From positions 8,052 through 72,051 of the forward strand of contig DAINAR010000003.1 of NCBI GenBank assembly GCA_036733345.1: a DNA stretch of 64,000 bases, given 5' to 3'. Below the pieces are notes generated by a model, which worked only from the letters and a program-made list of their open reading frames with translations, did no database searches and had not been told where the DNA came from. This document shows, piece after piece, positions 17,323 through 45,584 of the stretch. The stretch comes from Deltaproteobacteria bacterium (GTDB lineage: Bacteria > Desulfobacterota > DSM-4660 > Desulfatiglandales > Desulfatiglandaceae). The stretch's first letter is position 1. The number at the start of each line of letters is the position of its first letter. Made by a program: the position numbers and the translations under genes.

Positions 17323-18672
17323 CTATACCAGACCTTGATCCAGCATAGCATTTACAACCTTGACAAAACCGGCAATATTAGCACCTGCCATGTAATTGCC
17401 CTGCATTCCATATTCCGCAGACGCATCCAGACAAGTTTGATGAATACTTCTCATTATCATCTTAAGACGACTATCTACTTCTTCCCTTGGCCAGTTTAAA
17501 CGCATACTGTTCTGTGCCATCTCAAGACCTGATACTGCCACACCGCCGGCATTGGCTGCCTTGCCCGGGGCATAAAAGAGTTTATTATCAAGGAAGATGT
17601 TAATAGCCTCTGGCGTTGACGGCATATTTGATCCTTCACTAACAAGTCTGACGCCGTTATTGACTAGATTTTGTGCATCTTTTCCGTTTATTTCATTCTG
17701 GGTTGCACAGGGAAAGGCGCAATAGGCATTGTGGTTCCATAGGGGATTATAGTCAAGTGATGTGTCCACCTCCGTGAAAACTGCTTCCGAGTATTTGTCA
17801 ACATACTCACTGATCCTGCCGCGCCTGATATTTTTCAGCCTTTTTACAAACGCAAGCTTATCACTGTCTATTCCTTCTTCATCATAAATATAGCCCGATG
17901 AATCGGAAAGCGTGACAACCTTGCCACCCAGTTCAATGATTTTCTCAGCAGTATGTTGCGCTACATTTCCAGATCCGGAAACCAGACATACTTTCTCTTC
18001 CATACTGTCATTCTGAGTGGACAGCATCTCTGCAGCAAAATATACACAACCATAACCCGTTGCTTCGGGACGAATAAGGCTGCCGCCCCAGCCAAGGCTC
18101 TTGCCGGTAAGAACACCGGTAAACTCATTTCGGAGTCTTTTATACATACCGAAAAGATAACCAATTTCTCTGGCTCCAACGCCTATATCTCCTGCAGGCA
18201 CATCGGTGTCCGGACCAATATGACGATAGAGTTCAGCCATGAAACTCTGACAGAAATGCATAACCTCATTATCTGATTTTCCCTTGGGGTCAAAATCCGA
18301 TCCGCCTTTTCCACCTCCCATTGAAAGAGTAGTAAGGGCGTTTTTAAATACCTGTTCAAATGCAAGGAATTTAAGGATGCTTAAGTTAACGGACGGGTGA
18401 AACCGTATACCCCCTTTATAAGGTCCTATAGCACTATTCATCTGGATCCTGAATCCACGGTTAACCTGTACCTGTCCCTGGTCATCCATCCAGGGAACTC
18501 TGAACATTATAACGCGTTCAGGTTCCGTAATTCTTTCCAGAATTGCAGCCTGGCGATATTCCGGGTTTCGGTCAAGGACAGGCTGGACGGTTTCGAGTAC
18601 CTCTTGTACTGCCTGGTGAAATTCCTTTTCATAAGGATCTCTTGAAATTATTGTTTTTAAAAATTCAGACAT
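17323..18672 (-). CDS. gdhA: NADP-specific glutamate dehydrogenase
   Basis: KGGIRFHPSVNLSILKFLAFEQVFKNALTTLSMGGGKGGSDFDPKGKS motif. 449 aa, like E. coli GdhA. SD GGGAGG. Confidence 0.93.
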   Translation of the reverse strand: MSEFLKTIISRDPYEKEFHQAVQEVLETVQPVLDRNPEYRQAAILERITEPERVIMFRVPWMDDQGQVQVNRGFRIQMNSAIGPYKGGIRFHPSVNLSILKFLAFEQVFKNALTTLSMGGGKGGSDFDPKGKSDNEVMHFCQSFMAELYRHIGPDTDVPAGDIGVGAREIGYLFGMYKRLRNEFTGVLTGKSLGWGGSLIRPEATGYGCVYFAAEMLSTQNDSMEEKVCLVSGSGNVAQHTAEKIIELGGKVVTLSDSSGYIYDEEGIDSDKLAFVKRLKNIRRGRISEYVDKYSEAVFTEVDTSLDYNPLWNHNAYCAFPCATQNEINGKDAQNLVNNGVRLVSEGSNMPSTPEAINIFLDNKLFYAPGKAANAGGVAVSGLEMAQNSMRLNWPREEVDSRLKMIMRSIHQTCLDASAEYGMQGNYMAGANIAGFVKVVNAMLDQGLV

Positions 18673-18751
18673 TATTACCTCCCTGTTTTTAATAAGTTAA
18701 AATCTATACAATCAAATATGTTTTCAGCTTTAGAATGTCAGTTAAGATGTC

Positions 18752-21718
18752 CTAAGTCGCCACGATCACGCACTGTGATTTTCTGCCATCGATTTTAACA
18801 GTCAAAGGCTTTTTTAATCTTACATGCCTTAAATAGTCAGTCTCGTTTGAAGTTGGCAAAGACGTTAACCATTCCCAGTCTAAAAAATCCTCTGAATTTT
18901 CGGTAATGGTTATATATTGTATGCCTAATGAAGTTATATTTTGAAAAAAATGGGATCCCTGAGAAGGATCGGCCTTGAGTTTTTCGGTTCTTAGCTCAAC
19001 AATTGCCCCTACTCCTGAAATGTGTCTCCATTGAACAGGTATGCCAAGCCATCTGTCAGCAGAACCCCATCTCCCGGGGCCGATCAGGAGATATGGTCTT
19101 TTTTCAGCAAGCAGGATTGAATTTATCCTGCTTATTTCTTCAGCAATGATAACGGTTGATTCAGTTTTAAATGTATCGGGATTTACATATACAATATCCG
19201 AGATATTCTCATTCTTACCATTTCCAAGGGCCTGGCGGGATCGGCAGAAAGCCTTTTCAATATCGCGCGGAGTTATTTGTACATCAAATAATTCCTCATC
19301 AGCAACCATAGGTCTCATTTGAAGGAAATAGAAATTACTTTTATGTTGTTTGTTATTGCTGAGATTGACTGTAAATTCTATTTCAATTGGGCACCCCATG
19401 CCTTTTTGTCCGAGTTCAAGCAAGTCAGTAAGCAAATGAGGCAGCGGAAAGCTATTGTATTTCAAAACCTGTGCAAATGTTAAAATTTTAGGTCCAGGGA
19501 TATATCCCGTATCTCTGATGCGGTGTTCCTCAGACACATATGTGCTCGCAAGTGTTCTGACAGGGTGTTCATTTTCTGCTTCATCCAGATCTCTTCTTTC
19601 GAGATTTGAATATACTTCGAAATTAAGCTCGTCAGGATAGTTCTTTATTTTTAAGGCATAGAAAAAACGCTGTGCATTAGCCAGCATATCATCAACCGTT
19701 GAAAACTGCGGCATTAAATTAGGATATTTGGGCGAAAAGCGGAGCGTCTTTTCTCCTTCCACAACTATTTTGCCGAAACCAAGGGCAATATGTGCAATTC
19801 CCTCTTCAGATTTCATCGGGGAGATAGGATAGAAATTGTGGGATTGAGCTACACCCGAAATGGAGGGATAGAAGTATCTGCCGTATTCCTGTCCTGCCAA
19901 CTGCTGGATAATAACAGCCATGGCCTCATTTTGGGGCTGATTTGAAGTGCTTCTTGCAAACGCCTTGGGACCTTCATAATATGTAGAGGCATAGACCAGT
20001 TTGATGGCCGCAATAAGCTGCTGAAGCCTTCTGTATGGATCGGGATTATTATTGGGTACCATATATGTTTCATAAAGCCCTGCATAAGGCTGGAACTGCG
20101 CATCTTCAAGCAGGCTTGAGGATCGTACTGAAAGTGGTATTTTTACGCTGGACACAAAAGCTTCCAGATCTTTAATAAGCCATTCAGGCATGTTGGCTTT
20201 CAGGAAGGCAGCCGCCACTTCTTTGTCGGAAAAATCCTCTCTGGCAAATCGCTGAAGGCGGTTTTGTGTTACGAATGATTCAAAGCCATCGGTAGTAATA
20301 ACAAGAGTCTTTGGAATTATTATATTTGTTTCAGGATAATTGCTGTAGATTGCAGGAGTCTGCTGGAGCTGTGCAGACATGAAGGCCAGTCCCCTTGCTT
20401 TACCTCCGAGGGAGCCTTCTCCGATTTTAAGGAAATCCATGATGTATGGATCAAAAGTGGAGGAGTTGAATTTTGCAACTATTCCTTTTTGCCGCCACCT
20501 CCGAAGTTCACGTATATTTGATACAATATAGAACCTCATATCTTCAGGGCTTTTTAATTCTCCGGAACGCAAAATTCTAAATTTGGATGCAAGAGCAATC
20601 TCTGAACGCGCCATAATCCAGTTGGAAAACTGGTCTCTTTTTGCATGATATAGAAGGGATTCATCAGGTATCCCTGAAACCTTTTTTTCAAGGGATCGAA
20701 GGTCGGATGCACGGGCAATTTCAGAACCATCCGGCATCCGAAAAATGAAATCTCCGAACCCAAGATGGGTCAGAAAGAAATCATGAAGCTCAGTGAGTAA
20801 ATCCGGGGAATTCTTATCAAGAAAAACCGCCTGAATATTCTCTGCCTTATTCCTGTTTTTTGACTCAGCACTAAAGAGAAGAAGGGGCAGATAAGGCAAT
20901 TCATTCCTTATTTTTTTAAGGAGCTTAACCCCTCCAGTGTTATCAATTTTACCATTCTTTGGGATTCTGGTGTCGGATATGATGCCGATTAGAAAATCCC
21001 GAAATCTATCGTACAAATGTAGACCCTGTTCATAGGTTTCAGCCAGGAGAATCTTGGGTCTTGCGCGCATTTTTAGAAGACGGTGTTCTTCATTTAGGCC
21101 GACTTGCAGCACGGCCTGTGTCTGCTTGACGATTTCCCTGTAGATAAGAGGCAGAAAATATGAATAATAGACAGGTGAGTCCTCCACCAGAATCAATACG
21201 CGTACCTGAGCCTGTTTTGTGTCAGGTTCAACATTAAGATGGTCTTCAGCATTCTTGACAAGAGCAAGGAGCAGATCGGAGTTCCCGGACCATACAAAGA
21301 TTTTGTCAATTCCGCTGCAGTCTTTGTTTTCGGGAAGGGGATAGATTCCTCTGATGCTGTGGGTCAGGAGAAATACGGGTAATTCCGGCCTCATATTTTT
21401 TATTTCCAGGCCCAGAGAAAAACCATCCATATTATCCAGGTGAGGCATGGTAATAACCATGTCAAATTCTTTTTCGGCCAAAAGTTTCAGTGCATCATAG
21501 GCCGAAGACGTTCTTGTTACTCTGGGTGGCAGGCTCAGGTTTAATCCACTGTATTCGTTGACAATTCTGGATGCAAGGCTTCCATCTTCCTCCAGGATGA
21601 AGGCATCGTAGGGACTGGAGACAAGGAGTATTTCCCTCACCTTGATTTTCATGAGTTCATGAAATGTCTTGAAGTGAGAATAAAACTCACCGGGAAGACT
21701 GCTGTTTTCCATAACCAC
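18752..21718 (-). CDS. Receiver-like domains fused to a PEP/pyruvate-binding (PPDK_N, ATP-grasp) domain; function unknown
   Basis: N-terminal ILLVSSPYDAFILEEDG and a second CheY-like block (VRVLILVED...IISDTRIP). Central LGGKARGLAF and VRSSSLLEDAQFQPYAGLYETY typical of PPDK_N. C-terminal LLIGPGRWGSADRWLGIPV block. Confidence 0.7.
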   Translation of the reverse strand: MVMENSSLPGEFYSHFKTFHELMKIKVREILLVSSPYDAFILEEDGSLASRIVNEYSGLNLSLPPRVTRTSSAYDALKLLAEKEFDMVITMPHLDNMDGFSLGLEIKNMRPELPVFLLTHSIRGIYPLPENKDCSGIDKIFVWSGNSDLLLALVKNAEDHLNVEPDTKQAQVRVLILVEDSPVYYSYFLPLIYREIVKQTQAVLQVGLNEEHRLLKMRARPKILLAETYEQGLHLYDRFRDFLIGIISDTRIPKNGKIDNTGGVKLLKKIRNELPYLPLLLFSAESKNRNKAENIQAVFLDKNSPDLLTELHDFFLTHLGFGDFIFRMPDGSEIARASDLRSLEKKVSGIPDESLLYHAKRDQFSNWIMARSEIALASKFRILRSGELKSPEDMRFYIVSNIRELRRWRQKGIVAKFNSSTFDPYIMDFLKIGEGSLGGKARGLAFMSAQLQQTPAIYSNYPETNIIIPKTLVITTDGFESFVTQNRLQRFAREDFSDKEVAAAFLKANMPEWLIKDLEAFVSSVKIPLSVRSSSLLEDAQFQPYAGLYETYMVPNNNPDPYRRLQQLIAAIKLVYASTYYEGPKAFARSTSNQPQNEAMAVIIQQLAGQEYGRYFYPSISGVAQSHNFYPISPMKSEEGIAHIALGFGKIVVEGEKTLRFSPKYPNLMPQFSTVDDMLANAQRFFYALKIKNYPDELNFEVYSNLERRDLDEAENEHPVRTLASTYVSEEHRIRDTGYIPGPKILTFAQVLKYNSFPLPHLLTDLLELGQKGMGCPIEIEFTVNLSNNKQHKSNFYFLQMRPMVADEELFDVQITPRDIEKAFCRSRQALGNGKNENISDIVYVNPDTFKTESTVIIAEEISRINSILLAEKRPYLLIGPGRWGSADRWLGIPVQWRHISGVGAIVELRTEKLKADPSQGSHFFQNITSLGIQYITITENSEDFLDWEWLTSLPTSNETDYLRHVRLKKPLTVKIDGRKSQCVIVAT

Positions 21719-21853: not shown

Positions 21854-23437
21854 TTATGAATCAATTATATTAAGTGCTTCTTCCCTGTAGGCATCCATAA
21901 CATAGGGAATCCCTGTTATTTTTGCACATTCTTCGGTAAGGGAAAAGATGTCCTGCCTGCTGATATATTTTATTTCCCAGTTTCTTGATCCGGCCATTAT
22001 CTGCTGGAGACCCACCTTTATCTTGTCTGTTGCGCTGAAGATTCCTATAGCGCCTAATGGAAGATCATCCGCTTCAGATCCGTATTTTTCCTTAAGAACT
22101 TCATAGTTCATAAAGATTTCAGCCTTTGTAGATCCGAATCTTGAGACTGTTGCAGGAAGTCCGCCATTTTCTCCTCTCAACCATTTTTCAGTGTTTTTGC
22201 CAACCATGCCGGGGATCATCAATGCACGGCCCATGCATACGGCTTTGCAGTAAGGTGCGCCAAGGGCCAATGCCTTAAATACATGGTCTTCAGAGGAAAA
22301 TCCTCCTGCAAAAGCTATATCAGGCACAAATTTGCCTCTTTTTGCTAAACGTTCACATAACTCATAAGTCATTGAATGCAAATAGATGGAAGGAATGCCC
22401 CATTCGTTCATCATTCGCCAGGGGCTCATTCCTGTGCCGCCGGGAGCTCCATCTACGGTTAAAAGGTCTATGCCTGCATCACTTGACCAGCGTATGGCCA
22501 TGGCCAGCTCCCTCATCGGGTAAGCGCCCGTTTTGAGAGTTACTCTCTTTGCCCCCAGCTTTCGAATCCTTTCAACTTCATTCATAAAGCCTTCCTGGTC
22601 AACGAATCCGAGGCGGGAGTGACGTTCAAAATGCTTAAGAGGGCCGGCCTTGAAAGATGCCTGAAATGCCGGGTCTTCAGGGTCGGGAGTCACGATGTAG
22701 CCGCGTCTTTTGAGTTCAATCGCCCTTTCAATAGAATCAACCTTGATTTCTCCTCCAATACACTTTGCACCCTGACCCCATTTTAGTTCGATAGTCTCAA
22801 CCCCTAATTTTTCTATTACGTATTCAGCAACACCGTTTCGTGTATCCTCAACATTCATTTGAACAAGTATATCCCCGTAACCTTCATGATAGCGACGATA
22901 TTCTTTTACACGACGGTCCATTTCAGGTGATTTTTTTATTAATCCATTGCTGTTATATTCCAGTTCAGGATCTATTCCACAGACATTTTCACCACAAACC
23001 AGGCTGATACCGCTTATTGCCGCTCCTATTGCAAAATGGCTCCAGTTTTTTCGTGCAATATCAGTGCTGCCGAGTGCGCCGGTAAATATTGGCACCTTCA
23101 TCCTGACTTTTTCATTAACGCCATAGGATGTTTCTGTGCTGACGTTTGGAAAAGTTGCTTTATCCGGGTCTGCTTCCACCCCTTTTGCTCCCATGGCATA
23201 ACCCATTATATTCAAATGAGAATAATCTACCGGATAATCTTTATCAGCTCCGGCAGTAACGCTTCCAAAGGGCTCTGGATAAAGCAGTTCCCTGCCACGG
23301 AATGTGGCTCTGAACATGTCACAGTTTCCCTTGCATCCGTCAACACACCTGCTGCATATTCCAGATTGAGGTGCTATATCGCGTGAACGATTTTTGGTTT
23401 CAAGTGCTTCATTGGCGTTTGGTCTTTGTAAGTTCAT
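21854..23437 (-). CDS. Glutamate synthase-related FMN-binding protein (stand-alone GltB domain-2-like) with N-terminal Cys cluster
   Basis: KWGQGAKCIGGEIK and DGAPGGTGMSP match GltB FMN-domain motifs. CSRCVDGCKGNC near the N-terminus. I place the start at ATG 23437 (AGGAGG 5 nt upstream) rather than the track start at 23485. Confidence 0.8.
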   Translation of the reverse strand: MNLQRPNANEALETKNRSRDIAPQSGICSRCVDGCKGNCDMFRATFRGRELLYPEPFGSVTAGADKDYPVDYSHLNIMGYAMGAKGVEADPDKATFPNVSTETSYGVNEKVRMKVPIFTGALGSTDIARKNWSHFAIGAAISGISLVCGENVCGIDPELEYNSNGLIKKSPEMDRRVKEYRRYHEGYGDILVQMNVEDTRNGVAEYVIEKLGVETIELKWGQGAKCIGGEIKVDSIERAIELKRRGYIVTPDPEDPAFQASFKAGPLKHFERHSRLGFVDQEGFMNEVERIRKLGAKRVTLKTGAYPMRELAMAIRWSSDAGIDLLTVDGAPGGTGMSPWRMMNEWGIPSIYLHSMTYELCERLAKRGKFVPDIAFAGGFSSEDHVFKALALGAPYCKAVCMGRALMIPGMVGKNTEKWLRGENGGLPATVSRFGSTKAEIFMNYEVLKEKYGSEADDLPLGAIGIFSATDKIKVGLQQIMAGSRNWEIKYISRQDIFSLTEECAKITGIPYVMDAYREEALNIIDS

Positions 23438-23556: not shown

Positions 23557-23601
23557 AAAATAAAAAAGGGCACCAATCCCCATCAGGAAAAAGACACCCT
23601 T
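23557..23601 (-). terminator. Intrinsic terminator-like hairpin in the ANTAR / GltB-like intergenic leader
   Basis: Minus-strand RNA: AAGGGUGUCUUUUUCC-UGAU-GGGGAUUGGUGCCCUU (16 positions, 2x2 internal loop, several G-U pairs) followed by UUUUUUAUUUU. Confidence 0.6.
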
Positions 23602-23638
23602 GTCTATTCACATATATAAGACCGCACGCCATTGTGCG
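23592..23638 (-). promoter_or_regulatory. Candidate ANTAR-binding dual hairpin (two hexaloops, A1/G4)
   Basis: P1 is CGCAC-AAUGGC-GUGCG (23638-23623). P2 is AGAC-AAGGGU-GUCU (23605-23592). P2 overlaps the 5' arm of the terminator. Confidence 0.45.
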
Positions 23639-23656
23639 CTTTTTCAGTAAAAAATC

Positions 23657-23726: not shown

Positions 23727-24470
23727 TTATTTTATGGCGTGAGGTATGCTGGAGTAATACCCCAGTTCTTCAGAAAGAAGTATCGCTTCGGCAACGTCGC
23801 GCATGGATTTTCTGGAATCCATGCTTCTTTTCTGGAGCCACCGGTAAGCCTCGTCAGCCTTCATATTTCTTTGGTGCATAAGGATCTCTTTAGCCCGCTC
23901 AACTACCTTTCGGGTCTCCAGCTCTTCCTGGATAACTTTTGTTTTAACCATGAGTTCCGTATTGAGTATTGCAATTGCCGCCTGGTTAGCAACAGCTGTT
24001 ATCAAGTTGACTTCTGTTTCAGAAAAATCATGAGGAACGGCTGTGAAACAGTTTAATACTCCGATTACTTTTTCATCCTTTACCTGAAGAGGAACACTTA
24101 CCATTGATACGAGGCCCAGTTTCCGGGCCATTTCCTTCTCTTTGAACAGTGCCTCTTTCAGAACTTCCTTAACGATAAGCGGCTTGTTATTGGAGGCCAC
24201 AAATCCGACTATTCCTTCATTCATATTCAAGGAACGGTCTTTAACATAGGCCTGGTCAATTGCCTGGGTAGCTTTAAGCCTGATTACGGGAGGCTTTTGA
24301 CTTTCATCTACAAGCCACAGGGAACAGATTTCAACACCTGTTACTTTGGCAGTCACCATTACAATAAGCTTCAGGATATCTTCCAGATAAAGGTCAGAAG
24401 TGATAGCGCGGCCTATATCGGTTATAGCCTTAATATACTTATCATAGGTTTCGGGAATAGCTTTTTCCAT
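23727..24470 (-). CDS. GAF domain / ANTAR domain RNA-binding antiterminator-type regulator
   Basis: C-terminal LETRKVVERAKEILMHQRNMKADEAYRWLQKRSMDSRKSMRDVAEAIL is a clear ANTAR motif, and the N-terminal part is GAF-like. The start is ambiguous: the track gives 24536, and I prefer ATG 24470 (MEKAIPE...). Confidence 0.8.
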   Translation of the reverse strand: MEKAIPETYDKYIKAITDIGRAITSDLYLEDILKLIVMVTAKVTGVEICSLWLVDESQKPPVIRLKATQAIDQAYVKDRSLNMNEGIVGFVASNNKPLIVKEVLKEALFKEKEMARKLGLVSMVSVPLQVKDEKVIGVLNCFTAVPHDFSETEVNLITAVANQAAIAILNTELMVKTKVIQEELETRKVVERAKEILMHQRNMKADEAYRWLQKRSMDSRKSMRDVAEAILLSEELGYYSSIPHAIK

Positions 24471-24603
24471 AAAAGAGGCAACCTCAGATTCTTTTGTAAT
24501 AATATAAAGAATAATAAAAAATATTCTGGTGCACATAAGTCAAAGGTGCATAGGTAAAAAGTAAGAATTAGGATATATTTATGGGCTTTATCTGTTAAGC
24601 CGA

Positions 24604-25135: not shown

Positions 25136-26224
<1,089 letters not shown>

Positions 26225-29483: not shown

Positions 29484-29499
29484 TGGCATCATAATTGCT
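29484..29499 (+). promoter_or_regulatory. Sigma-54 promoter (TGGCAT-N5-TTGCT) of glnA
   Basis: CTGGCATCATAATTGCTT has GG-N10-GC spacing and matches the TGGCAC-N5-TTGCW consensus at all but one position. Lies 57 nt upstream of the ATG at 29556. Confidence 0.8.
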
Positions 29500-30884: not shown

Positions 30885-30906
30885 GCACAGGTATTTTAGT
30901 ATTTGA

Positions 30907-35200: not shown

Positions 35201-36799
35201 AAGGTGCGTCATTCTACACCTGGAGTGACACTTATTTCGCCTCCCCCTCACCATGATATTTACTCAATTGAAGACCTGTCTGAGCTTATCTTTGACCTGA
35301 AAAATGTGAATCCGGAAGCTCGTATTTCGGTCAAGCTTGTATCAGAAGTCGGGGTTGGTACGATTGCCGCAGGTGTATCAAAGGCGCATGCCGACATGGT
35401 TCTGATAAGCGGATATGACGGCGGTACGGGCGCATCGCCTCTTTCATCCATCAGACATGCAGGAATGCCCTGGGAACTGGGACTTGCAGACACACATCAG
35501 ACACTTGTATTAAATAATCTTCGAAGCCGGATCAGGGTCCAGGTTGACGGTCAGATGAAGACAGGCAGGGATGTAATTATTGCAGCGCTGCTGGGGGCGG
35601 AAGAATATGGTTTTGCCACCGCTGTGTTAATCGTCCTTGGTTGTGTAATGCTAAGAAAGTGCAACAGCAATGCATGTCCTGTGGGTATTGCTACTCAGGA
35701 TCCTGATCTTAGAAAATATTTCAAAGGGAAACCGGAATACGTAGTCAATTATTTCAACATGATCGCTGAGGAAGTACGTGAACTTATGGCATTGCTGGGA
35801 TTCAGGAGAATGGATGATCTCATCGGCAGGTCTGATCTGCTTGAAATGAACAGTGCCCTGGATTTCTGGAAGGCAAAGGGGCTTGATTTCTCAGGTATAT
35901 TTTACCGACCGGAGGTTAAAGGTGACATGCCCTGCAGATGTGTTGAGATGCAGAGACACGATATTGAAAAAGTTCTGGACAGAGAACTTATTTCACTCTC
36001 ATGGGAATCTCTCGAAACAAAGAAAAAGACTGCTATTCAGCTCCCTGTACACAACACCGACAGGGCTGTAGGGGCAATGATATCAGGCGAGGTTGCTAAA
36101 CGGTTTGGAAATGAGGGCCTGCCGGATGACACGATTACCTGCAAATTTGCTGGTGCTGCGGGTCAGAGTTTTGGGGCTTTTCTGGCAAAGGGTTTGACTT
36201 TCATACTTGAAGGGGAAGCAAATGATTATCTGGGTAAGGGACTGTCAGGCGGAAAGATAGTTGTTAAACCATATCCAGGTTCAGATTATAATCCATCAGA
36301 GAACATAATTGCAGGCAACATAATCCTCTACGGTGCAACTGCCGGCCAGGTGTATATACATGGAAAGGCCGGAGAGAGGTTTGGAGTCAGAAACAGCGGT
36401 GTATATGCCGTGGTGGAGGGTGTAGGGGATCATGGCTGTGAATATATGACAGGCGGAAGGGTCGTTGTTTTAGGGGAAACCGGTATAAATTTTGCCGCCG
36501 GGATGAGCGGGGGGATTGCTTACGTCTATGATCCCGAGCGGCTCTTTGACAACCGCTGCAATCTGGACATGGTGGACCTGGAACTGGTAGCGGATGAAAA
36601 TGATATCCAGGAATTAAAGGAGATGATCAGCTGGCACCTTATATATACATACAGCGCAAAGGCACAGTCAATCCTGGACAACTGGGAAGCATGCCTCCCG
36701 TTTTTTGTTAAGGTCTTTCCCATGGAGTACCGGAGAGTACTCGGAAAGATGAGCAGGGAAGACGTTGCCATTGAGCGACAGGAGATACAGCATGGATGA
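32285..36799 (+). CDS. gltB: Glutamate synthase large subunit
   Basis: Ntn Cys (HDACGVGFV), FMN domain (QGAKPGEGGQLPGHKV, DGGTGASP), C-terminal GXGXG domain. 1504 aa, GTG start. Confidence 0.95.
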   Translation: MKGLYDKKFEHDACGVGFVVNIEGTKSHAIVEKGIEVLKNLEHRGAIGADMNTGDGAGILFQIPDAFFRREGEMLGYHLPETGCYGIGMIFMHRSSNLAEKCRAIIEKTINEEGLGFIGWRNVPVDEGAIAGQAKDRQPIILQCLIDGKGLKWAGLERRLFIVRREIERLVSSTTGNEIPFYIPSMSCRTIVYKGLFTATQLPLFYRDLNDPDVTSSLAVVHQRYSTNTFPSWELAQPFRYLAHNGEINTLRGNLNLIRSRESCLKSDLFGDEIGKVLPVINETGSDSSCLDNVLELLVNAGRSLPHSMLMLVPEAWGDKYPMGHDQRGFFEYHAGLMEPWDGPAAIAFSNGDQVGAMLDRNGLRPARYTMTKSGFMVFASEAGVLDIPPSDVVEKGALRPGQLILVDLDKKRVIKNSEIKTICARQQPYRRWVEENRITLRGFYGDVASIKPDLDRILFMQKMFGYTREDLEMILGPMALNGYEPVGSMGADTPLAVLSERNQLLYSYFKQLFAQVTNPPIDPVREELVMSLMTFIGNPGNILSEVPRNSRLIKLRHPILANEDLVRLRDMNVHEFRSATMALGFPAGGSGRYLASAIDQLCRTSEENLRKGCRILILSDRGLAGSLTPIPALLAVSAINQHLLKKGMRTKAGLIIETGEAREVMHMAMLLGFGATAVNPYLAFETIAEMVLKDELKQGIGIAEALENYIRALCKGLLKIMSKMGISTLRSYRSAQVFEAVGLGRDLVDKYFPGTSSRIGGIGLNEIAAEANARHESAHNKIHGTHEILPSGGHYRYRRDGERHLWSPGSITLLQKATRNNDYSLYSEYAGLINNQAKALYTLRGMFRFRNTKPVPVDEVEPASEIVKRFVTGAMSFGSISREAHETIAIAMNRIGAKSNSGEGGEDSARYKPLPNGDRRSSAVKQVASGRFGVTTEYLVNARELQIKIAQGAKPGEGGQLPGHKVNEEIAKVRHSTPGVTLISPPPHHDIYSIEDLSELIFDLKNVNPEARISVKLVSEVGVGTIAAGVSKAHADMVLISGYDGGTGASPLSSIRHAGMPWELGLADTHQTLVLNNLRSRIRVQVDGQMKTGRDVIIAALLGAEEYGFATAVLIVLGCVMLRKCNSNACPVGIATQDPDLRKYFKGKPEYVVNYFNMIAEEVRELMALLGFRRMDDLIGRSDLLEMNSALDFWKAKGLDFSGIFYRPEVKGDMPCRCVEMQRHDIEKVLDRELISLSWESLETKKKTAIQLPVHNTDRAVGAMISGEVAKRFGNEGLPDDTITCKFAGAAGQSFGAFLAKGLTFILEGEANDYLGKGLSGGKIVVKPYPGSDYNPSENIIAGNIILYGATAGQVYIHGKAGERFGVRNSGVYAVVEGVGDHGCEYMTGGRVVVLGETGINFAAGMSGGIAYVYDPERLFDNRCNLDMVDLELVADENDIQELKEMISWHLIYTYSAKAQSILDNWEACLPFFVKVFPMEYRRVLGKMSREDVAIERQEIQHG

Positions 36800-38234
36800 G
36801 AAGGCGTCATTTATCAGGTATCCACGGAGAGACGCTTCATATCGTCCAGTATATGAACGTCTGAGGGATTACAACGCCGTAGAGTTGTCCCTGACCTTTG
36901 AAGATACCCTTATGCAGGCTGAACGGTGCATGGAGTGCGGCACGCCTTTCTGCCATGCCTACGGGTGTCCTCTGGGAAATATTGTTCCTGAATTCAATAA
37001 TGCTGCACGAATGGCAAACTGGAAGAAGGCTCTTGATCTTTTACTGTCAACCAACAACTTTCCGGAATTTACAGGCCGTATCTGTCCTGCACCCTGTGAA
37101 GCCTCGTGCGTTGCAGGAATCAATCGAGATCCTGTGAATATAAGGCAGATCGAACTGGCAATTATTGAAAAGGGTTTTGAGAATGGCTATATACATGCGG
37201 AATTGCCTTCTATCAGATTCAAGGAGAAAGTGGCCATTGTTGGTTCGGGCCCGGCCGGGCTTGCTGCAGCCGATATGCTGAACAGATCAGGGTATGATGT
37301 GACTGTCTTTGAAAGCAGTAAGAAGCCGGGAGGCCTTCTCAGATATGGGGTGCCTGATTTCAAGCTTGAAAAGTGGGTAGTTGAACGTCGCATAGACCTG
37401 ATGAAAAAACAGGGGATTGTTTTTGAAACCGGTGTGAAAGTCGGGAAGGATATTTCATACGGTTATCTATCAGGGCATTTTGATGCAATATGCCTTGCAT
37501 GCGGGCCCGGTGAGCCTCGGGATTTGCCTGTTCAGGGACGAAGTTTAAAAGGTATCTATTTTGCAATGGACTATCTGGTTCAGCAGAACAGGAGGATTTC
37601 AGGCGAGAAAGCAGACCCGTCACAGGAAATTACTGCCTCAGGAAAGACAGTTGTAGTTATAGGCGGCGGAGATACCGGCTCAGACTGCCTTGGAACAGCC
37701 CTGCGTCAGGGTGCAGAAAAGGTATATCAGTTTGAGATCATGCCTGAACCTCCGACTGAAAGGCCTGAATCAACTCCGTGGCCAGAATGGCCTGCAATAC
37801 TGCGCGAAACTCATGCACACAAGGAGGGAGGGGAAAGACGCTGGTCTGTTATGACCAAGGAATTCATGGGTGAAAACGGAATCCTGAAAGGGCTGCGATG
37901 TGCTGAAGTGGAGTGGAAGACAACCGAAGAAGGAAGGGTTCATGTGCCTGAAGAAATACCCGGAACGGAATTTGATGTAAAAGCCGATCTTGTTATCCTT
38001 GCAATGGGTTTTGTGGGCCGGAAAAAGACCGGTATTGTTGAAAGATTTGGAATTGAACTGGACAGCAGGGGAAACATCAGGGCTGATGAGCGTAATATGA
38101 CAAAGGTAAGCGGGTTGTTTATTGCGGGAGACATGAATATGGGGCAGTCACTGGTTGTCAGTGCGATAGCGGATGGCAGAAGGGCGGCTCAGGGAATTAT
38201 GGCATATTTGGCAAAAAGGGCAGGAAAAAAGTGA
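36792..38234 (+). CDS. gltD: Glutamate synthase small subunit (NADPH)
   Basis: CMECGTPFC...CPLGN Fe-S motifs and VAIVGSGPAGLAAA. The ATG at 36792 overlaps the gltB stop (ATGGATGA); the track start is 36765. Confidence 0.92.
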   Translation: MDEKASFIRYPRRDASYRPVYERLRDYNAVELSLTFEDTLMQAERCMECGTPFCHAYGCPLGNIVPEFNNAARMANWKKALDLLLSTNNFPEFTGRICPAPCEASCVAGINRDPVNIRQIELAIIEKGFENGYIHAELPSIRFKEKVAIVGSGPAGLAAADMLNRSGYDVTVFESSKKPGGLLRYGVPDFKLEKWVVERRIDLMKKQGIVFETGVKVGKDISYGYLSGHFDAICLACGPGEPRDLPVQGRSLKGIYFAMDYLVQQNRRISGEKADPSQEITASGKTVVVIGGGDTGSDCLGTALRQGAEKVYQFEIMPEPPTERPESTPWPEWPAILRETHAHKEGGERRWSVMTKEFMGENGILKGLRCAEVEWKTTEEGRVHVPEEIPGTEFDVKADLVILAMGFVGRKKTGIVERFGIELDSRGNIRADERNMTKVSGLFIAGDMNMGQSLVVSAIADGRRAAQGIMAYLAKRAGKK

Positions 38235-38869
38235 TTTCAATTATTGATTATGAAGCCGGAAACCTGAAAAGCGTTGAGCGTGCCCTGAAAAAACTTGGAT
38301 TTGCCTGCATTATAACTCAGAATAAGGAAGAAATTAACAGATCCGAAAGGATCATATTCCCCGGGGTAGGGGCAGCAGGGAAGGCAATTGCTGATTTAAG
38401 AAGGCTTGGTCTTGATAATGTTCTGATAAAAGCATTTGAGGAGGGTAAGCCCATTCTCGGGATTTGTCTGGGTGCCCAGATAATACTTGAAAAGAGCGAA
38501 GAAAATCTCACTAAATGCCTTGGATTGATTCCAGGAGAGGTAAGATTATTTCCCCGTCCTCTATTCTCATCTGATAAAGAGCGTCTCAAAATTCCCCACA
38601 TGGGCTGGAACGGCATAGAGATAATAAAAAGGCATCCGGTTTTAAATGGAGTCGGGCCGGATGATGAATTCTATTTTGTTCATTCATATTATGTTAAACC
38701 CGCTTCAGACGAATATTTAATCGGAGTTACCGAATACGGGATAGAGTTTTGTTCCATAATAGGATACAGAAATTTGATTGCCGTACAATTTCATCTGGAA
38801 AAGAGCGGCTCCCCCGGTCTGAGAATACTGAAAAATTTCTGCAAATGGGATGGAACCTATAATGCTTAG
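38231..38869 (+). CDS. hisH: Imidazole glycerol phosphate synthase, glutamine amidotransferase subunit
   Basis: [28 protein letters not shown] and FVHSYY motifs. GTG start overlapping the gltD stop (GTGA). Confidence 0.9.
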
Positions 38870-39641
38870 CAAAAGGATCATACCCTGCCTGGATGTAAGG
38901 GATGGTAAGACCACCAAGGGAATAAAATTTAAAGAAAATATAGATATTGGTGATCCTGTGGAGATGGCCAGATTCTATTATGAAGAGGGGGCTGATGAGA
39001 TTGTCTTTTATGATATTACAGCGTCGAGTGATCGCCGTGATATTATGATTGACGTAGTTCGTCGCGTAGCTGAAACTATTTTTATACCCTTTTCTGTTGG
39101 AGGGGGGATCAGGACAATTCAGGATATGCGCAGTGTTCTTCTGGCAGGTGCCGAGAAGGTAAGCGTCAACAGCGGGGCTGTTGAAAATCCAGGGATCATA
39201 TCACAAGGGGCTCTTGCCTTTGGAAGCCAGTGCATTGTGCTCGGAATGGATGTAAAAAAGGTCAAAAAATCAAAAGAAATCCCTTCAGGTTATGAGATAG
39301 TAATTCATGGCGGAAGAAAAAATACAGGCATTGATGCACTTTATTGGGCCAAAAAGGCTGAAGAATTGGGCGCAGGAGAAATATGCCTGAATTCCATTGA
39401 TGCGGACGGCACTAAAGAAGGATATGAGTTGATACTGACCTCACTTATCTCTGATAATGTAAATATCCCGGTAATAGCATCAGGAGGTGCGGGTAGCATA
39501 GAACATATTTATGAAGCGCTGGTAAATGCGAGAGCGGATGCGGCCCTGATAGCTTCTGTTGTACACTATGAAACCTTTTCAATCAGAAATATCAAAGAGG
39601 AACTGAATTCCCGCGGGGTTAAGGTACGCAGGGTATGGTAA
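38862..39641 (+). CDS. hisF: Imidazole glycerol phosphate synthase, cyclase subunit
   Basis: [16 protein letters not shown]..., SVGGGIR and ASGGAG motifs. The ATG overlaps the hisH stop. Confidence 0.92.
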
Positions 39642-39657: not shown

Positions 39658-40791
39658 ATGAAAGCATTACTGGCATTGGAAGATGGGAAGGTTTTTACCG
39701 GCAGATCCTTTACCGGTCACGGAGAGACAGCAGGAGAGGTCGTTTTCAATACGAGCATGTGCGGTTATCAGGAGATATTGACTGATCCTTCATACTGCGG
39801 CCAGATGGTTAATATGACATATCCTTTGATCGGCAACTATGGCGTCAATGAAAATGATGTCGAATCTGAAAGGATACAGGTCAAGGCAATGCTGGTAAAA
39901 GAATACCAGAGATATCCCAGCAACTTCAGATCGCAGGGAGATCTCTCGTATTATCTTCAGTCAGGACATGTGCTTGGAATTGAAGGAATTGATACAAGAG
40001 CCCTCACAAGACATATAAGAGTACAGGGGGCAATGAAGGCTGCGATTTCAACATTGGACCTGAATCCTGTCTCAATGGTGGAAAAGGCAAGGCGGTCACC
40101 AGCTATGGCCGGCCGTGACCTGGCCTGTGAAGTTACATGCAGGGAGCCCATGGCCTGGATGAACAATCGGTTGGTAAGGATTCCTGGAGGGCTTGAAGGA
40201 TTTAAATGGCCTGAAGGTAAAAATACATGGCGTGTAGTGGCCATAGACTTTGGAGTTAAACTTAATATACTCAGGGAGTTGGATAAGAGAGGGTGTTCCG
40301 TCATTCTCCTGCCGGCATATGCGGATAGTGAGGCTGTTAAAAGGCTAAAACCGCATGGGCTTTTTCTGAGTAACGGGCCCGGAGACCCTGCCGCAGTGAC
40401 CTATGCAGTAAAGACTATCAGAGACCTGATAGGCAGTATTCCTATATTCGGGATATGCCTCGGACATCAGCTGATTGGACTGGCCCTTGGAGGTAAGACA
40501 TTTAAACTGAAATTCGGTCATCGCGGAGCAAACCAGCCTGTCCTTAATCTTGCAACAGGCCGGGTTGAGATAACCTCTCAGAATCATGGCTTCTGTGTGG
40601 ACATAGAGTCACTAAATGATCCTGATATCGAAGTAAGCCATATTAACCTCAATGACAGGACAGTTGAAGGGCTTGTACATAAGAAATTCCCATTGTTTTC
40701 AGTCCAGTATCACCCTGAGGCCTCCCCCGGACCTAATGATGCTACATATCTCTTTGACAGGTTCATAGGGATGATGGAACATACTTTATGA
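39658..40791 (+). CDS. carA: Carbamoyl-phosphate synthase small (glutaminase) subunit
   Basis: FNTSMCGYQEILTDPSY, GICLGHQ, GHRGANQPV and VQYHPEA motifs. Confidence 0.94.
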   Translation: MKALLALEDGKVFTGRSFTGHGETAGEVVFNTSMCGYQEILTDPSYCGQMVNMTYPLIGNYGVNENDVESERIQVKAMLVKEYQRYPSNFRSQGDLSYYLQSGHVLGIEGIDTRALTRHIRVQGAMKAAISTLDLNPVSMVEKARRSPAMAGRDLACEVTCREPMAWMNNRLVRIPGGLEGFKWPEGKNTWRVVAIDFGVKLNILRELDKRGCSVILLPAYADSEAVKRLKPHGLFLSNGPGDPAAVTYAVKTIRDLIGSIPIFGICLGHQLIGLALGGKTFKLKFGHRGANQPVLNLATGRVEITSQNHGFCVDIESLNDPDIEVSHINLNDRTVEGLVHKKFPLFSVQYHPEASPGPNDATYLFDRFIGMMEHTL

Positions 40792-40846: not shown

Positions 40847-43800
40847 ATGCCTAAACGCTCCGATATAAAAAAGATTCTTATAATCGGCTCAGGTCCGATA
40901 GTAATAGGGCAGGCATGTGAGTTCGACTATTCGGGAACCCAGGCATGCAAGGCTTTGATGGAAGAAGGGTTTGAGGTAGTGCTGGTAAACAGCAATCCCG
41001 CAACCATAATGACTGATCCCGGAACCGCACATCGCACTTATATTGAACCGATCACTCCTGAGATTGTGGCAAAGGTTATAGAGCGAGAACGTCCTGATGC
41101 TGTTTTGCCCACCCTTGGTGGTCAGACCGGTTTGAACGTTGTGGTGCAAGTTGCACAGTCCGGGCTCCTGGATGAGCTGGGTGTGGAGGTTATCGGGGCC
41201 TCAATTCCCGTAATACTAAAGGCGGAAGATCGTGAGCAGTTCCGAAATGCTATGAATCGTATAGGTCTGCGTGTGCCTAAAAACGGCATCGCAAGAGACA
41301 TGGATCAGGCCAGGCAGGTGGCTGAAGAAATAGGTTATCCGCTGATTGTCAGGGCAAGCTTTACCCTGGGAGGGATAGGCAGCGGCGTTGCCTATAATCG
41401 TGAGGAGTTTGAAACACTTGCAAGCTCAGGCCTTGATGCAAGTATGATTTCCGAAATCATAATTGAAGAGTCCCTTATTGGCTGGAAGGAATTTGAACTG
41501 GAAGTAATGAGAGACCGCATGGACAATGTGGTTATTATTTGTTCCATCGAAAATTTTGATCCAATGGGAATCCATACGGGAGACAGCATTACCGTCGCTC
41601 CGGCTCAGACCCTTTCAGACAAAGAATACCAGGCCATGCGTAATGCAGCCATATCAATCATAAGAGAGATAGGCGTTGAAACAGGCGGTTCCAATATCCA
41701 GTTTGCTGTTCATCCTCAAAATGGAGAGATGGTAGTTATAGAGATGAATCCCAGGGTATCCAGAAGCTCGGCACTGGCTTCAAAGGCTACAGGATTCCCC
41801 ATTGCAAAGATTGCAGCCAAGCTTGCCGTAGGATATTCCCTTAACGAGATCCCGAATGATATCACACGCGAAACATTTGCTTCCTTTGAACCGGCAATTG
41901 ATTACTGCGTTGTCAAGATACCCCGGTGGACGTTTGAAAAATTCCACGGATCTGAAGACATATTGACTACCTCGATGAAGTCGGTCGGTGAAACCATGGC
42001 TATAGGCAGGACCTTCAAGGAAGCCCTGCAAAAGGCTGTCAGATCCCTGGAGGTGGGGCGATTCGGCCTTGGTTCCGCAATCATGTCCTCAGGAAAAAAT
42101 TCCAGCCCTGATCTGAACGCAATTGAAAAGGGGCTTATATATCCAAACTCAAATCGATTATTCAATATTTATAATGCCATTGGATCAGGGATCAGCCTGG
42201 AAAGAATTAATGAACTGACCTCAATCGATATATGGTTTCTATATAATATTAAACAGATATATGAGTTAGAAGAGAAGTTGAATGATACGGCACGGAATGG
42301 AATTCAGCTTGAATCTGTGGAGCATGAATTCCTGAAAAAGGTAAAAGAATATGGCTTTTCCGATATCCAGATAGCAAAGACCTTTAATGCCAGTGAACAG
42401 AACGTGCGGGAAATTAGAAGGGAAAAGGCAGTAGCTCCGGTCTTTAAATTAGTTGACACATGTGCAGCAGAGTTTGAAGCCTACACCCCATATTATTATT
42501 CAAGCTATGATCAGGAGAATGAGATTCGCAGGTCGGAAAAAAGGAAGGTAATGATTCTTGGAGGAGGCCCTAACAGGATAGGGCAGGGCATTGAATTTGA
42601 CTACTGCTGTGTGCAGGCATCATTCGCTTTAAAAGAGATAGGGGTAGAGAGCATAATGGTCAACAGTAATCCGGAGACGGTAAGTACGGATTATGATACC
42701 TCTGACAAACTTTATTTCGAACCATTGACCAGGGAGGATGTGCTGAATATATACGAGCAGGAAAAGGCAGAAGGCATAATCGTACAGTTCGGAGGACAGA
42801 CCCCTCTCAATATTTCTGTTCAACTGGCTGAGGCCGGAGCAACGATTCTTGGAACAAGCCCTGACAGCATAGACATGGCAGAAGACAGGGAACGTTTTCA
42901 GGACCTGCTCATTAAATTAAACATATTACAGCCGAAAAACGGGATCGCATTTACCGAGGAGGAAGCAGCCGGTATAGCGGAAGAGGTGGGTTACCCTGTG
43001 ATAGTAAGACCGTCATTTGTGCTGGGCGGTCGAGGAATGGAAATTGTTTATGATAAGGAAGACCTGATGCGTTATATTGAAACGGCTGTTCTTGTAACTC
43101 CCGGCAAACCCATATTGATTGACAGATTCCTTGACAACGCCATAGAGGTGGATGTTGATGCCATCTCGGATGGAACCGATACCATAATAGGCGGGATTAT
43201 GGAACATATTGAAGAGGCAGGCATACACAGCGGAGACAGCGCCTGTGTCCTTCCACCTATTTCCATTAAAGCCGAAACGCTTGAAAAAATCAAGGATCAT
43301 ACAAGAGCTATTGCCAGAGAGCTCAAAGTGATAGGCCTGATGAATATACAGTATGCCATAAAAGATAATGATGTCTATGTGCTTGAAGTTAATCCCAGGG
43401 CGTCAAGAACCATACCATTTGTGAGCAAGGCTACCGGTGTTCCTTTAGCAAAGCTTGCCACCAAGGTAATAATGGGGAGCCTTCTGAGGGATCTGGGTAT
43501 TACTGATGAAGTTGATCCGCCATATATTTCCTGCAAGGAAGCTGTTTTTCCTTTTGCCAGATTTTCAGGAGTTGATACGGTTCTGGGGCCTGAAATGAGA
43601 TCCACAGGAGAGGTGATGGGTGTTGACAGGTCTTTTGGACTTGCTTTTGCCAAGTCACAAATAGCTGCAGGCCAGAGACTTCCGCTTTCCGGAACGGTTT
43701 TTATAAGCGTAAGGGATGAAGACAAGATTAAAATACCTGAAACTGCAAAAATCCTTTATGATCTTGGTTTTAAGATCGTTGCAACTCGAGGGACATCTAC

Positions 43801-44095
43801 ATTTCTTTCATCTTATGGAATATTAAATGAAGCGGTCAAAAAGGTCAGGGAAGGAAGACCTCATACTGTAGACATGATAAAGAACGGCAATATTGACCTT
43901 GTAATAAACACAACAGGAAATAAGAAAGCGGTATCCGAATCCTACTCGATCAGGCGTACGGCACTGATGTTTAATATACCCTATACAACTACAACCGCAG
44001 GCGCACTCGCAACGGCAAGGGCTATCAAATCTCTGAAAGAAGGCAGTCTTGAGGTAAAGACGATACAGGAATATCATACCCTGCTTAGTAGTTAA
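40847..44095 (+). CDS. carB: Carbamoyl-phosphate synthase large subunit
   Basis: Duplicated ATP-grasp halves ([24 protein letters not shown]; [21 protein letters not shown]) and an MGS-like C-terminus. 1082 aa. Confidence 0.95.
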
Positions 44096-44153
44096 TTTTT
44101 ATCAGTTAATAGTCAACTGTTGATAGTTACTACATAAGTGGAAAGAGATAGAA

Positions 44154-45584
44154 ATGAACAGAAACGACAAACAAATAACCAATCCAGGGAATTTGCTTTC
44201 CCGCAGGCCAAGAGAGGAATGCGGGATTTTTGCAGTATATGGCCATGAGGATGCTGCCAAACTCACCTATTTCGGGCTCTATGCCTTGCAGCACAGGGGT
44301 CAGGAAAGTGCCGGCATTGTCATATCCAATGAAAAGATCGTTTCTGAACATAAGGACATGGGCCTTGTTCCTGATGTGTTTGACGAAGATACCCTGAACA
44401 GACTCAAAGGGCATATAGGTATCGGGCATGTGAGGTATTCCACAACAGGTTCATCCCTTCTTGTAAACGCTCAGCCGTTCAGGATTAAATTTTCCGGAAA
44501 GTCCCTTGCAATCGCACATAACGGCAACCTTGTAAATGCCCAAAATATTAGATCTGAGCTGGAAGATAATGGATCTATATTCCAGACAACCATGGACAGT
44601 GAAGTTGTGCTGCATCTGATTGCAAAACATCTCAGAATGGGACTGGAACAGGCAATGGTTGAAACCATGGGCCGGATCAGAGGGGCCTATTCAATGCTTA
44701 TTATGACTGAAGATACTATAATCGCGGCCAGGGATCCAAACGGCTTCAGGCCGCTTTGCCTTGGAAAGATTAACGGGGGTTATGTCATAGCCTCGGAAAC
44801 CTGCGCATTTGATCTGGTGGAAGCCGAATATATAAGAGATGTTGAGCCGGGAGAGATCCTGATAATCAATAAGGATGGCCTTTTAAGTATTCCTTCTGTT
44901 GTAAAAACTAGAAAGAGCCACTGCATATTTGAGCTGATCTATTTTGCAAGGCCGGACAGTACGGTGTTCGGACGAAATGTATACATGTTTCGCAAAAAAC
45001 AGGGTGAACTGCTTGCGGAACAATTTCCACTGGAAGTTGATCTTGTCATGCCTTTCCCGGATTCCGGCAACTACGCTGCTATCGGCTATGCGAAGGCATC
45101 CGGTGTCCCTATGGAGATGGGCATGATAAGAAACCATTATATTGGCAGAACTTTTATCCAGCCGTCTCAGAGCATGAGAGACTTCGGGGTAAAGGTCAAA
45201 CTTAACCCTGTAAAGGAATTATTGAAAAATAAGCGGGTCCTGATCATAGAGGACTCGATTATTCGTGGGACCACTGCTCGAAGCAGAATTAAGACTTTGA
45301 GGAAGATGGGTACACGGGAAATCCATATGCTTGTCAGTTGCCCACCGCACAGGTTCCCCTGTTTCTATGGAATAGATTTTTCAACAAAGGGTGAATTGAT
45401 TGCATCCAGGAAATCAGTTGAAGAGATACGGGATTTTATAGGCCTGGACAGCCTTGGATATTTAAGCATGGAAAATCTGGTTAAATCTGCATCTATTTCT
45501 GAAGACGAACTCTGCCTTGCCTGTTTTAACGGCGAATATCCGGTTCCTGTTGACGAGAATTACTGCAAATACTGCCTTGAATGA
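44154..45584 (+). CDS. purF: Amidophosphoribosyltransferase (glutamine PRPP amidotransferase), propeptide / Fe-S type
   Basis: ECGIFAVYGH Ntn Cys after a propeptide of about 23 aa, PRT motif VLIIEDSIIRGTT, C-terminal Cys cluster (CLACFNGEYP). Confidence 0.93.
   Translation: MNRNDKQITNPGNLLSRRPREECGIFAVYGHEDAAKLTYFGLYALQHRGQESAGIVISNEKIVSEHKDMGLVPDVFDEDTLNRLKGHIGIGHVRYSTTGSSLLVNAQPFRIKFSGKSLAIAHNGNLVNAQNIRSELEDNGSIFQTTMDSEVVLHLIAKHLRMGLEQAMVETMGRIRGAYSMLIMTEDTIIAARDPNGFRPLCLGKINGGYVIASETCAFDLVEAEYIRDVEPGEILIINKDGLLSIPSVVKTRKSHCIFELIYFARPDSTVFGRNVYMFRKKQGELLAEQFPLEVDLVMPFPDSGNYAAIGYAKASGVPMEMGMIRNHYIGRTFIQPSQSMRDFGVKVKLNPVKELLKNKRVLIIEDSIIRGTTARSRIKTLRKMGTREIHMLVSCPPHRFPCFYGIDFSTKGELIASRKSVEEIRDFIGLDSLGYLSMENLVKSASISEDELCLACFNGEYPVPVDENYCKYCLE

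Follow-up and report, generated by a model that had tools for sequence, protein, structure and literature searches.

We asked why one stretch of bacterial DNA should line up the gene for glutamine synthesis with genes for several enzymes that consume glutamine, and whether these genes are expressed together. The textbook arrangement is different: the genes for making glutamine, and those for the steps that use it in histidine, purine, pyrimidine/arginine and glutamate formation, lie at separate loci under separate regulation. The window, by which we mean the whole analysed stretch of 64,000 nucleotides (nt) from a deltaproteobacterium of the family Desulfatiglandaceae, a lineage of sediment sulfate reducers (assembly GCA_036733345.1, here genome G000; contig DAINAR010000003.1, positions 8,052 to 72,051), carries them in the string glnA-x-gltB-gltD-hisH-hisF-carA-carB-purF, where x encodes a protein related to aminoacyl-tRNA synthetases (aaRS). 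We think it rather likely that this string is a lineage-conserved nitrogen-assimilation cluster of a non-diazotrophic member of the Desulfatiglandales, in which glutamine synthesis and its sinks would be expressed together from a sigma-54 promoter. A preliminary description had read the locus in this way; its gene identities, promoter, close packing and synteny stood up, and its suggestions of nitrogen-specific paralogues and of a NifA-like activator did not.

The glnA-purF string and its promoter

Nine plus-strand genes had been described between positions 29556 and 45584, and the open reading frame listing and profile searches place all of them there. The profiles were those of Pfam and NCBIfam, with equivalog or subfamily cut-offs deciding identities; eight of the nine genes scored above such an NCBIfam cut-off, the exception being x.

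29556..30884, plus strand: glnA, 442-aa type I glutamine synthetase (GS) (TIGR00653, 550 bits)
31011..32243, plus strand: x, 410-aa paralogue of the class IIb aaRS catalytic core, archaeal AsnA-like (tRNA-synt_2, 25 bits; NF005054, 131 bits)
32285..36799, plus strand: gltB, large subunit of glutamate synthase (GOGAT), an N-terminal nucleophile (Ntn) amidotransferase (NF008730, 1786 bits)
36792..38234, plus strand: gltD, GOGAT small subunit (TIGR01317, 600 bits)
38231..38869, plus strand: hisH, glutaminase of imidazole glycerol phosphate (IGP) synthase, triad type (TIGR01855, 212 bits; cut-off 105)
38862..39641, plus strand: hisF, IGP synthase cyclase (TIGR00735, 362 bits; cut-off 295)
39658..40791, plus strand: carA, glutaminase subunit of carbamoyl-phosphate synthase (CPSase) (TIGR01368, 498 bits)
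40847..44095, plus strand: carB, CPSase large subunit (NF003671, 1692 bits)
44154..45584, plus strand: purF, amidophosphoribosyltransferase, Ntn type (TIGR01134, 527 bits)

The glnA ATG is preceded by a GGAGGA ribosome-binding site, and the spacer in front of it carries the following elements, with a regulator gene on its far side.

29484..29499, plus strand: sigma-54 -24/-12 promoter, TGGCATcataaTTGCT, exact pattern match
29365..29376: upstream palindrome 1, TACATTTTTGTC, TACA-N4-TGTA type, conserved alignment block
29396..29407: upstream palindrome 2, TACAATATTGTA, TACA-N4-TGTA type, conserved alignment block
27646..29223, minus strand: enhancer-binding protein with GAF, sigma-54 AAA+ (GAFTGA) and helix-turn-helix parts (Sigma54_activat, 235 bits; GAF; HTH_8)

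The sigma-54 promoter that had been proposed to head the string is therefore present, and it is conserved in relatives together with the two upstream palindromes. It is a perfect match 57 nt before the glnA ATG, inside the 332-bp divergent spacer, and the palindromes lie 31 bp apart at -88 and -119 relative to the -24 box. When 350 nt upstream of glnA were taken from related genomes, the strict sigma-54 motif was found in 18 of the 23 closest relatives and in the window, 71-192 nt upstream of glnA (mostly 71-83 nt). An alignment of 14 of these upstream regions, which are otherwise unalignable, left four conserved blocks only: the ribosome-binding site, the -24/-12 boxes and the two palindromes. 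Judged from these blocks, the layout resembles that of a classical enhancer-dependent promoter.

The enhancer-binding protein is encoded divergently from glnA and has its GAFTGA motif at residue 289. The earlier label of a NifA-like protein is misleading: the score against the nifA model TIGR01817 is 503.5 bits, below the cut-off of 528.85, its putative sites are TACA-N4-TGTA and not TGT-N10-ACA, and nifH had no match in this genome or in seven relatives. Because nifH is absent from all eight genomes searched, the protein is predicted not to be a nif regulator, that is, not NifA in the functional sense. Elsewhere in the genome (contig C18, ~29659, minus strand), a TACA-N4-TGTR palindrome stands ~100 bp upstream of another strict sigma-54 promoter, which precedes the gene for a 288-aa putative outer-membrane beta-barrel protein; this promoter may be a second target of the glnA-adjacent activator.

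Within the string the genes are closely packed, much as the preliminary description had it (short or no gaps): there are three overlaps, gaps of 16-58 nt otherwise, and one exception of 126 nt between glnA and x. The gltB and gltD genes overlap by 8 nt, with the gltD ATG within the gltB stop region (ATGGATGA); gltD and hisH overlap by 4 nt, the hisH GTG sharing the gltD stop (GTGA); and hisH and hisF again overlap by 8 nt, with the hisF ATG in the hisH stop region (ATGCTTAG). These start/stop overlaps would tie GOGAT to histidine synthesis on one predicted message. The remaining gaps are 41 nt (x-gltB), 16 nt (hisF-carA), 55 nt (carA-carB) and 58 nt (carB-purF), so that no non-overlapping gap downstream of x exceeds 58 nt. 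A consensus scan found no terminator-like site in the plus-strand spacers and no convincing sigma-70 site within the short ones; in general, its counts of sigma-70 promoters and terminators were not above those of shuffled sequence. An Rfam scan of positions 15000-48000 at E ≤ 1 gave zero matches, i.e. no known riboswitch or leader.

The 126-nt spacer after glnA folds at -31.7 kcal/mol (RNAfold) and holds one structured element.

30903..30940, plus strand: 17-bp hairpin after glnA, followed by UUUAGCAGG without a proper U-tract (RNAfold)

The hairpin is shared with the closest relative (L036). Many other species have none, and there the glnA-x spacer is 11-40 nt. We read glnA-x as an ancestral co-transcribed pair, in which the hairpin of this genus is a possible attenuator or RNA-stabilising element and may set the ratio of the glnA message to the downstream message. 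In two relatives (L045 and L049) the glnA-x spacers are 441-574 nt long and contain MITE-like structured repeat insertions with fold energies of -160 to -220 kcal/mol.

Gene order in relatives and in other phyla

We next asked whether the same order occurs in other Desulfobacterota, the comparison that the preliminary description had called for. Different genera of Desulfatiglandales keep the order, and across the family the clustered genes show synteny, with protein identities of 60-90%. The arrangements seen were as follows.

All nine genes, order kept through carB-purF: G016, G011
glnA-x-gltB-gltD-hisH-hisF-carA: L042, L045, L048, L055, L056, L057 (six other species-level genomes)
glnA-x, mvhD-metVF, three-gene split archaeal-type GOGAT, glnD and PII, hisH-hisF-carA-carB: G012 (complete genome), G007
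glnA-x-hisH-hisF-carA without GOGAT between: L038, L039, L040
carA-carB-purF together, separated from or convergent with glnA-x: G003, G026

Because the same order recurs in other genera, the clustering goes beyond chance. The purF continuation of the split-GOGAT variant was confirmed in the complete genome G012. In that genome (locus L021, C1:1204000-1223999, locus positions 5315-16647) mvhD, metV/metF-like genes and the split GOGAT take the place of the bacterial gltBD between x and hisH, and the glnD-like and PII genes are oriented opposite to the string.

A comparable string occurs outside the phylum. A metagenome-assembled genome of Phycisphaerales (L110, PLLP01000016.1, 3968-21212) has the order amtB-amtB-glnN(GSIII)-x-gltB-gltD-nadE-carB, with gaps from glnN on of 63, 79, -8, 15 and 29 nt; its nadE encodes a glutamine-dependent NAD synthetase, and a related activator is encoded upstream. 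In loci labelled Pirellulales, x-gltBD is linked with the activator and the receiver/PPDK_N gene, and genomes of Syntrophales and Desulfomonilia type carry x after purF. Two loci (L096 and L082) give x a sigma-54 promoter of its own, TTGGCAT-N5-GTTGCT, ~120 nt upstream. From its gene content, the Phycisphaerales string appears to be an independent, convergent 'glutamine module' in Planctomycetota, and the design of source, x, GOGAT and amidotransferase appears to recur with non-orthologous parts. This recurrence in another phylum is the strongest support for the functional idea of the preliminary description, and it argues for selection over accident.

Co-regulation of glutamine production and consumption is plausible, and it is strengthened by the promoter conservation, the predicted translational coupling, the family-wide synteny and the convergent analogue. 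In the mechanism that we propose, the activator would bind the TACA-N4-TGTA palindromes, its GAF domain might sense a nitrogen/carbon signal such as 2-oxoglutarate, by analogy with other GAF enhancer-binding proteins, and it would drive high glnA expression. Part of the glnA transcript would pass the U-tract-less hairpin into the eight downstream genes. GS would then be expressed in step with its largest sinks, namely GOGAT (glutamate), IGP synthase (histidine), CPSase (arginine and pyrimidines) and PurF (purines).

One unit or several, and the copy number of the clustered genes

Could the order be conserved and the string still consist of several transcription units? In this alternative, which we regard as possible but clearly less probable than joint expression, glnA alone would be the target of sigma-54 and the activator and its transcript would end at the hairpin, x to purF would be expressed from ordinary, unrecognised promoters, and the clustering would reflect descent and weak selection for co-location, not regulation of glutamine flux as a unit. 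A strong hairpin does stand directly after glnA, but it is without a U-tract and is absent in the many relatives with 11-40 nt glnA-x spacing. The downstream genes are sole-copy housekeeping genes (see below) that must be expressed under nitrogen excess, the internal spacers of relatives are variable and sometimes long, and the modules glnA-x, GOGAT, hisHF and carAB-purF recombine between genomes. On the other hand, the gltB/gltD/hisH/hisF overlaps join GOGAT with histidine synthesis, the short spacers hold no convincing sigma-70 site or terminator, and Planctomycetota arrived at the same design with other parts.

Several observations weigh against joint expression from the sigma-54 promoter. 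The 17-bp hairpin could terminate most transcripts. Some relatives have internal gaps of 200-570 nt with repeat insertions, one (L037) has hisHF divergent from glnA, and G003 and G026 keep carA-carB-purF apart from or convergent with glnA-x; because of these long gaps, the divergent hisHF and the separated carAB-purF, co-transcription appears not to be obligatory across relatives. The combination of palindrome and sigma-54 promoter occurs genome-wide at glnA and one other gene only, the cluster gathers just four of the cell's many glutamine amidotransferase systems, and both the activator's binding sites and the ligand of its GAF domain are steps that we infer. Furthermore, a nitrogen-limitation signal cannot be all that switches on the housekeeping genes for purines, pyrimidines, arginine and histidine; joint expression therefore requires either an activator that is active under most conditions or unrecognised internal promoters.

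The preliminary description had also raised the idea that the clustered amidotransferase genes are additional copies specific to nitrogen status, with their housekeeping paralogues encoded elsewhere in the genome. The search for second copies gave a divided answer: hisH, carA and true purF are single, and hisF and carB have diverged second copies. Six relatives, the complete genome G012 among them, have one hisH each; carA was single in all seven genomes, and purF gave one above-cut-off match in each of seven. In every case the only copy is that of the cluster or an ortholog of it. The paralogue idea accordingly fails for the hisH, carA and purF systems, and because these genes are single-copy, the clustered genes are best regarded, on sequence grounds, as the housekeeping enzymes and not as nitrogen-specific paralogues. 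As sole-copy housekeeping genes they would make the cluster physiologically central, with an expression not confined to nitrogen limitation. What speaks for paralogues is the second carB (52% identical) and second hisF (46% identical) in this genome and in relatives, along with extra hisH/hisF pairs on contigs C39 and C127. The clustered copies, however, outscore the second copies on the equivalog models (362 vs 320 bits for hisF, 1540 vs 1353 bits for carB), the second carB is without a carA partner and C127 is a possible binning contaminant, and we consider the paralogue explanation very improbable.

The second copies have features of their own. The second carB lies on contig C1 of this genome (97911-102598; L001 7717-12668) and also in G012 (C1:2643499-2648030; L117). 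It is full-length and passes the CPSase cut-offs, and it is always followed by a PurF-like gene combining an Ntn amidotransferase with a phosphoribosyltransferase, a pair kept in six of six relatives tested. The PurF-like partner shares ~25% identity with the PurF of the cluster, and its score is 130 bits against a purF cut-off of 350. The pair mirrors the carB-purF adjacency of the cluster and may stem from an ancient duplication, or it may be a CPSase with a non-canonical glutaminase partner. The orphan second hisF (contig C29:21741-22487; L003 6736-7515) passes the TIGR00735 cut-off, has no adjacent hisH, and has ampG and trkH as neighbours; it was present in four of six relatives tested, among them G012, G016 and G026. 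Contig C39 carries a WbuZ-type sugar-amidation hisH/hisF pair whose hisF falls below the hisF cut-off, and contig C127 (1776 bp) is a hisH-hisA-hisF' fragment with a hisF 54% identical to the clustered copy. Since relatives carry one hisH each, C127 may be a contaminant of the genome bin.

That the region is a horizontally acquired 'island', as its G+C of 0.44-0.49 across gltB-carB against 0.39-0.42 in the flanks might suggest, was rejected as highly improbable, because no mobility genes and no integrase, tRNA or repeat boundary were seen, the genes are sole-copy core metabolism, the synteny is conserved across the family at the protein identities given above, and a higher G+C fits conserved, highly expressed genes.

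Gene x, the divergent genes and known nitrogen systems

We then asked what x might contribute. Its scores lie below the cut-offs of the equivalog models NF005054 'asparagine synthetase A' (131 bits against 309) and NF005052 (56 bits against 368), and its existing labels are 'hypothetical', 'amino acid--tRNA ligase-related' and 'aspartyl/asparaginyl-tRNA synthetase'. A match was found in 13 of 40 relatives, full-length in 11. The alignment comprised 35 members from records labelled Thermodesulfobacteriota, Fibrobacterota, Planctomycetota or Bacteriovoracaceae (the last label being unverified); mean column identity is 75% without large indels, and members from the four phylum labels represented are at least 59% identical to one another. 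A search of a library of 1.8 billion representatives gave only seven full-length clusters (at 50% identity) that scored below 1e-80; after these, the next full-length relatives were ~300-aa proteins resembling the archaeal asparagine synthetase A (AS-AR), at 27-38% identity. The AlphaFold model of x (pLDDT 77, pTM 0.81) has archaeal aspartyl-tRNA synthetase (AspRS), AS-AR and asparaginyl-tRNA synthetase (AsnRS) as its top Foldseek matches and shows a class IIb catalytic core without an anticodon-binding domain. Class II motifs 1-3 are invariant, including the motif-2 and motif-3 arginines, as is the pair E304...R311, which we take to be the equivalents of the Mg/ATP glutamate and the side-chain-binding arginine of AspRS.

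Compared with AS-AR (PDB 3P8T, 3REU, 1NNH), x is 25-26% identical, with a TM-score of 0.67 normalised to AS-AR, and the two share TDPL, SMI, SPNIRLE, FxQxDxE, FW, RExYD, NYD, SG..RE and GxGxGxER. They differ in length (410 aa for x, ~295 aa for AS-AR), x adding an N-terminal three-helix extension and four insertions, and at positions consistent in AS-AR, where GRH is changed to GKY, HKQ to SKF and GGERE to GA(V/I)RE. AS-AR is archaeal, whereas x is bacterial and always found among nitrogen genes. Taken together, the comparisons indicate that x forms a narrow, very conserved, unnamed family whose closest relative is archaeal asparagine synthetase A. Ammonia-dependent amidation of aspartate to asparagine is the most likely single activity to predict for it, although we would put this slightly short of an even chance. 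In the mechanism proposed above, x would most likely be an ATP-dependent amidoligase akin to the archaeal ammonia-dependent asparagine synthetase and would open another route of entry for ammonia. Of 41 relatives, 38 have AsnRS, and therefore free asparagine is needed. The phyletic pattern was uninformative on whether x is the only asparagine route, since AsnB-like genes occur both with and without x.

It is less likely, but conceivable, that x is not AsnA but a new aaRS-derived enzyme of glutamine/ammonia homeostasis within a 'glutamine module' assembled independently in several phyla. Such an enzyme could be an ATP-dependent ligase making another amide or a nitrogen-status signal, or it could act on or with GS; the parts of the module could be GSI or GSIII, a bacterial or a split GOGAT, and HisHF/CarAB/PurF or NadE/CarB. 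In either case the link of x to nitrogen genes extends over several phyla, and x often has a sigma-54 promoter of its own.

On the minus strand, the gene set described earlier for 17323-29223 was confirmed by the Pfam and NCBIfam searches. In addition to the activator gene it comprises the following features.

17323..18672, minus strand: gdhA, NADP-specific glutamate dehydrogenase (NF006929, 751 bits, cut-off 536; ELFV_dehydrog)
18752..21718, minus strand: 988-aa receiver and PPDK_N (ATP-grasp) protein (PPDK_N, 129 bits; Response_reg, 38 bits)
21854..23437, minus strand: stand-alone GltB FMN-domain protein (Glu_synthase, 59 bits)
23560..23650, minus strand: candidate ANTAR-type leader, two hexaloop hairpins, read by eye
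23727..24536, minus strand: GAF-ANTAR RNA-binding regulator (ANTAR, 78 bits; GAF, 68 bits)
25136..26203, minus strand: iron-containing alcohol dehydrogenase family protein (Fe-ADH, 90 bits)
26278..27465, minus strand: pyridoxal phosphate-dependent aminotransferase of DegT/DnrJ/EryC1 type (Pfam, 309 bits)

These genes form two modules whose members move together, activator-DegT-Fe-ADH and GAF-ANTAR-GltB-FMN-receiver/PPDK_N-gdhA. At least four genera (this genus, G016, L045 and L049) have the DegT and Fe-ADH pair (25136-27465 in the window) next to the activator and glnA. As to the second module, other genomes also carry the receiver/PPDK_N gene together with x, gdhA and the GltB-FMN gene. The GltB-FMN protein, whose ATG at 23437 is preceded by AGGAGG, is 91-94% identical in G001 and G005; Pfam Glu_synthase is its sole match and no NCBIfam family matched it. 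The GAF-ANTAR protein is 96% identical in G001, and its gene adjoins the GltB-FMN gene in several genomes. Between these two genes lies the candidate leader, which was judged by the hexaloop pattern of ANTAR leaders (A at position 1, G at position 4); its loops are AAUGGC and AAGGGU, and the second hairpin overlaps a terminator-like stem with a U-tract. The fold energy of the whole leader was not better than that of shuffles (z = -0.76) and Rfam gave no match to it; the hairpins are weak evidence, compatible with ANTAR antitermination. We propose that the GAF-ANTAR, GltB-FMN, receiver/PPDK_N and gdhA genes would be a second unit of the same nitrogen regulon, probably controlled by antitermination.

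The outer limits of the region are clear. The genes past purF are unrelated to nitrogen (MgtC, MscS-like, an ArgE/DapE-type deacylase, GNATs, a CHASE2 kinase and others), which bears out the placing of the end of the island at purF, and just past gdhA lies an hdr-mvhD-metVF cluster (window 10167-16803), whereas G012 has its mvhD and metV/metF-like genes inside the string.

Finally, we compared the cluster with known systems. In the enterobacterial glnALG (glnA-ntrBC) operon, a -24/-12 promoter and, upstream of it, two activator sites precede glnA, and a hairpin after glnA permits partial read-through into the downstream genes. The cluster resembles glnALG and its NtrC control in having a sigma-54 promoter, two candidate upstream sites and a post-glnA hairpin. 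It differs in that its predicted regulator is a divergently encoded, one-component GAF activator, while that of glnALG is a response regulator encoded downstream, and in that a motif search found no NLYDLP adenylylation motif in its type I GS, unlike the enterobacterial enzyme. Moreover, glnA is followed here by GOGAT, three biosynthetic amidotransferase systems and the aaRS-like gene, and in glnALG by regulators. The aromatic trp-his-tyr-aro supraoperon of Bacillus subtilis likewise joins metabolite-sharing pathways in one co-directional unit with partial read-through; here, by comparison, what the pathways have in common is glutamine's amide nitrogen, and the string is headed by a promoter of the sigma-54-dependent type. 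In Geobacter sulfurreducens, an anaerobe of deltaproteobacterial type, RpoN controls glnB-glnA, the GOGAT operon and glutamate dehydrogenase, and rpoN is essential because ammonia assimilation depends on it (PMC2725144). This regulon is a precedent for sigma-54 control of housekeeping nitrogen genes, but its genes are in separate operons in which no his, car or pur genes are reported (PMC2725144), whereas here they stand in one string.

Literature searches for the gene combination, for nitrogen assimilation in Desulfatiglans and for sigma-54 regulons returned no description of this cluster. It extends the known sigma-54 nitrogen-assimilation operons and is moderately novel, with an uncharacterised enzyme family, x, in its midst. 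A conserved string that holds the only hisH, carA and purF of the cell behind a nitrogen-type promoter points to a coupling, in these bacteria, between the expression of the glutamine source and that of its sinks.

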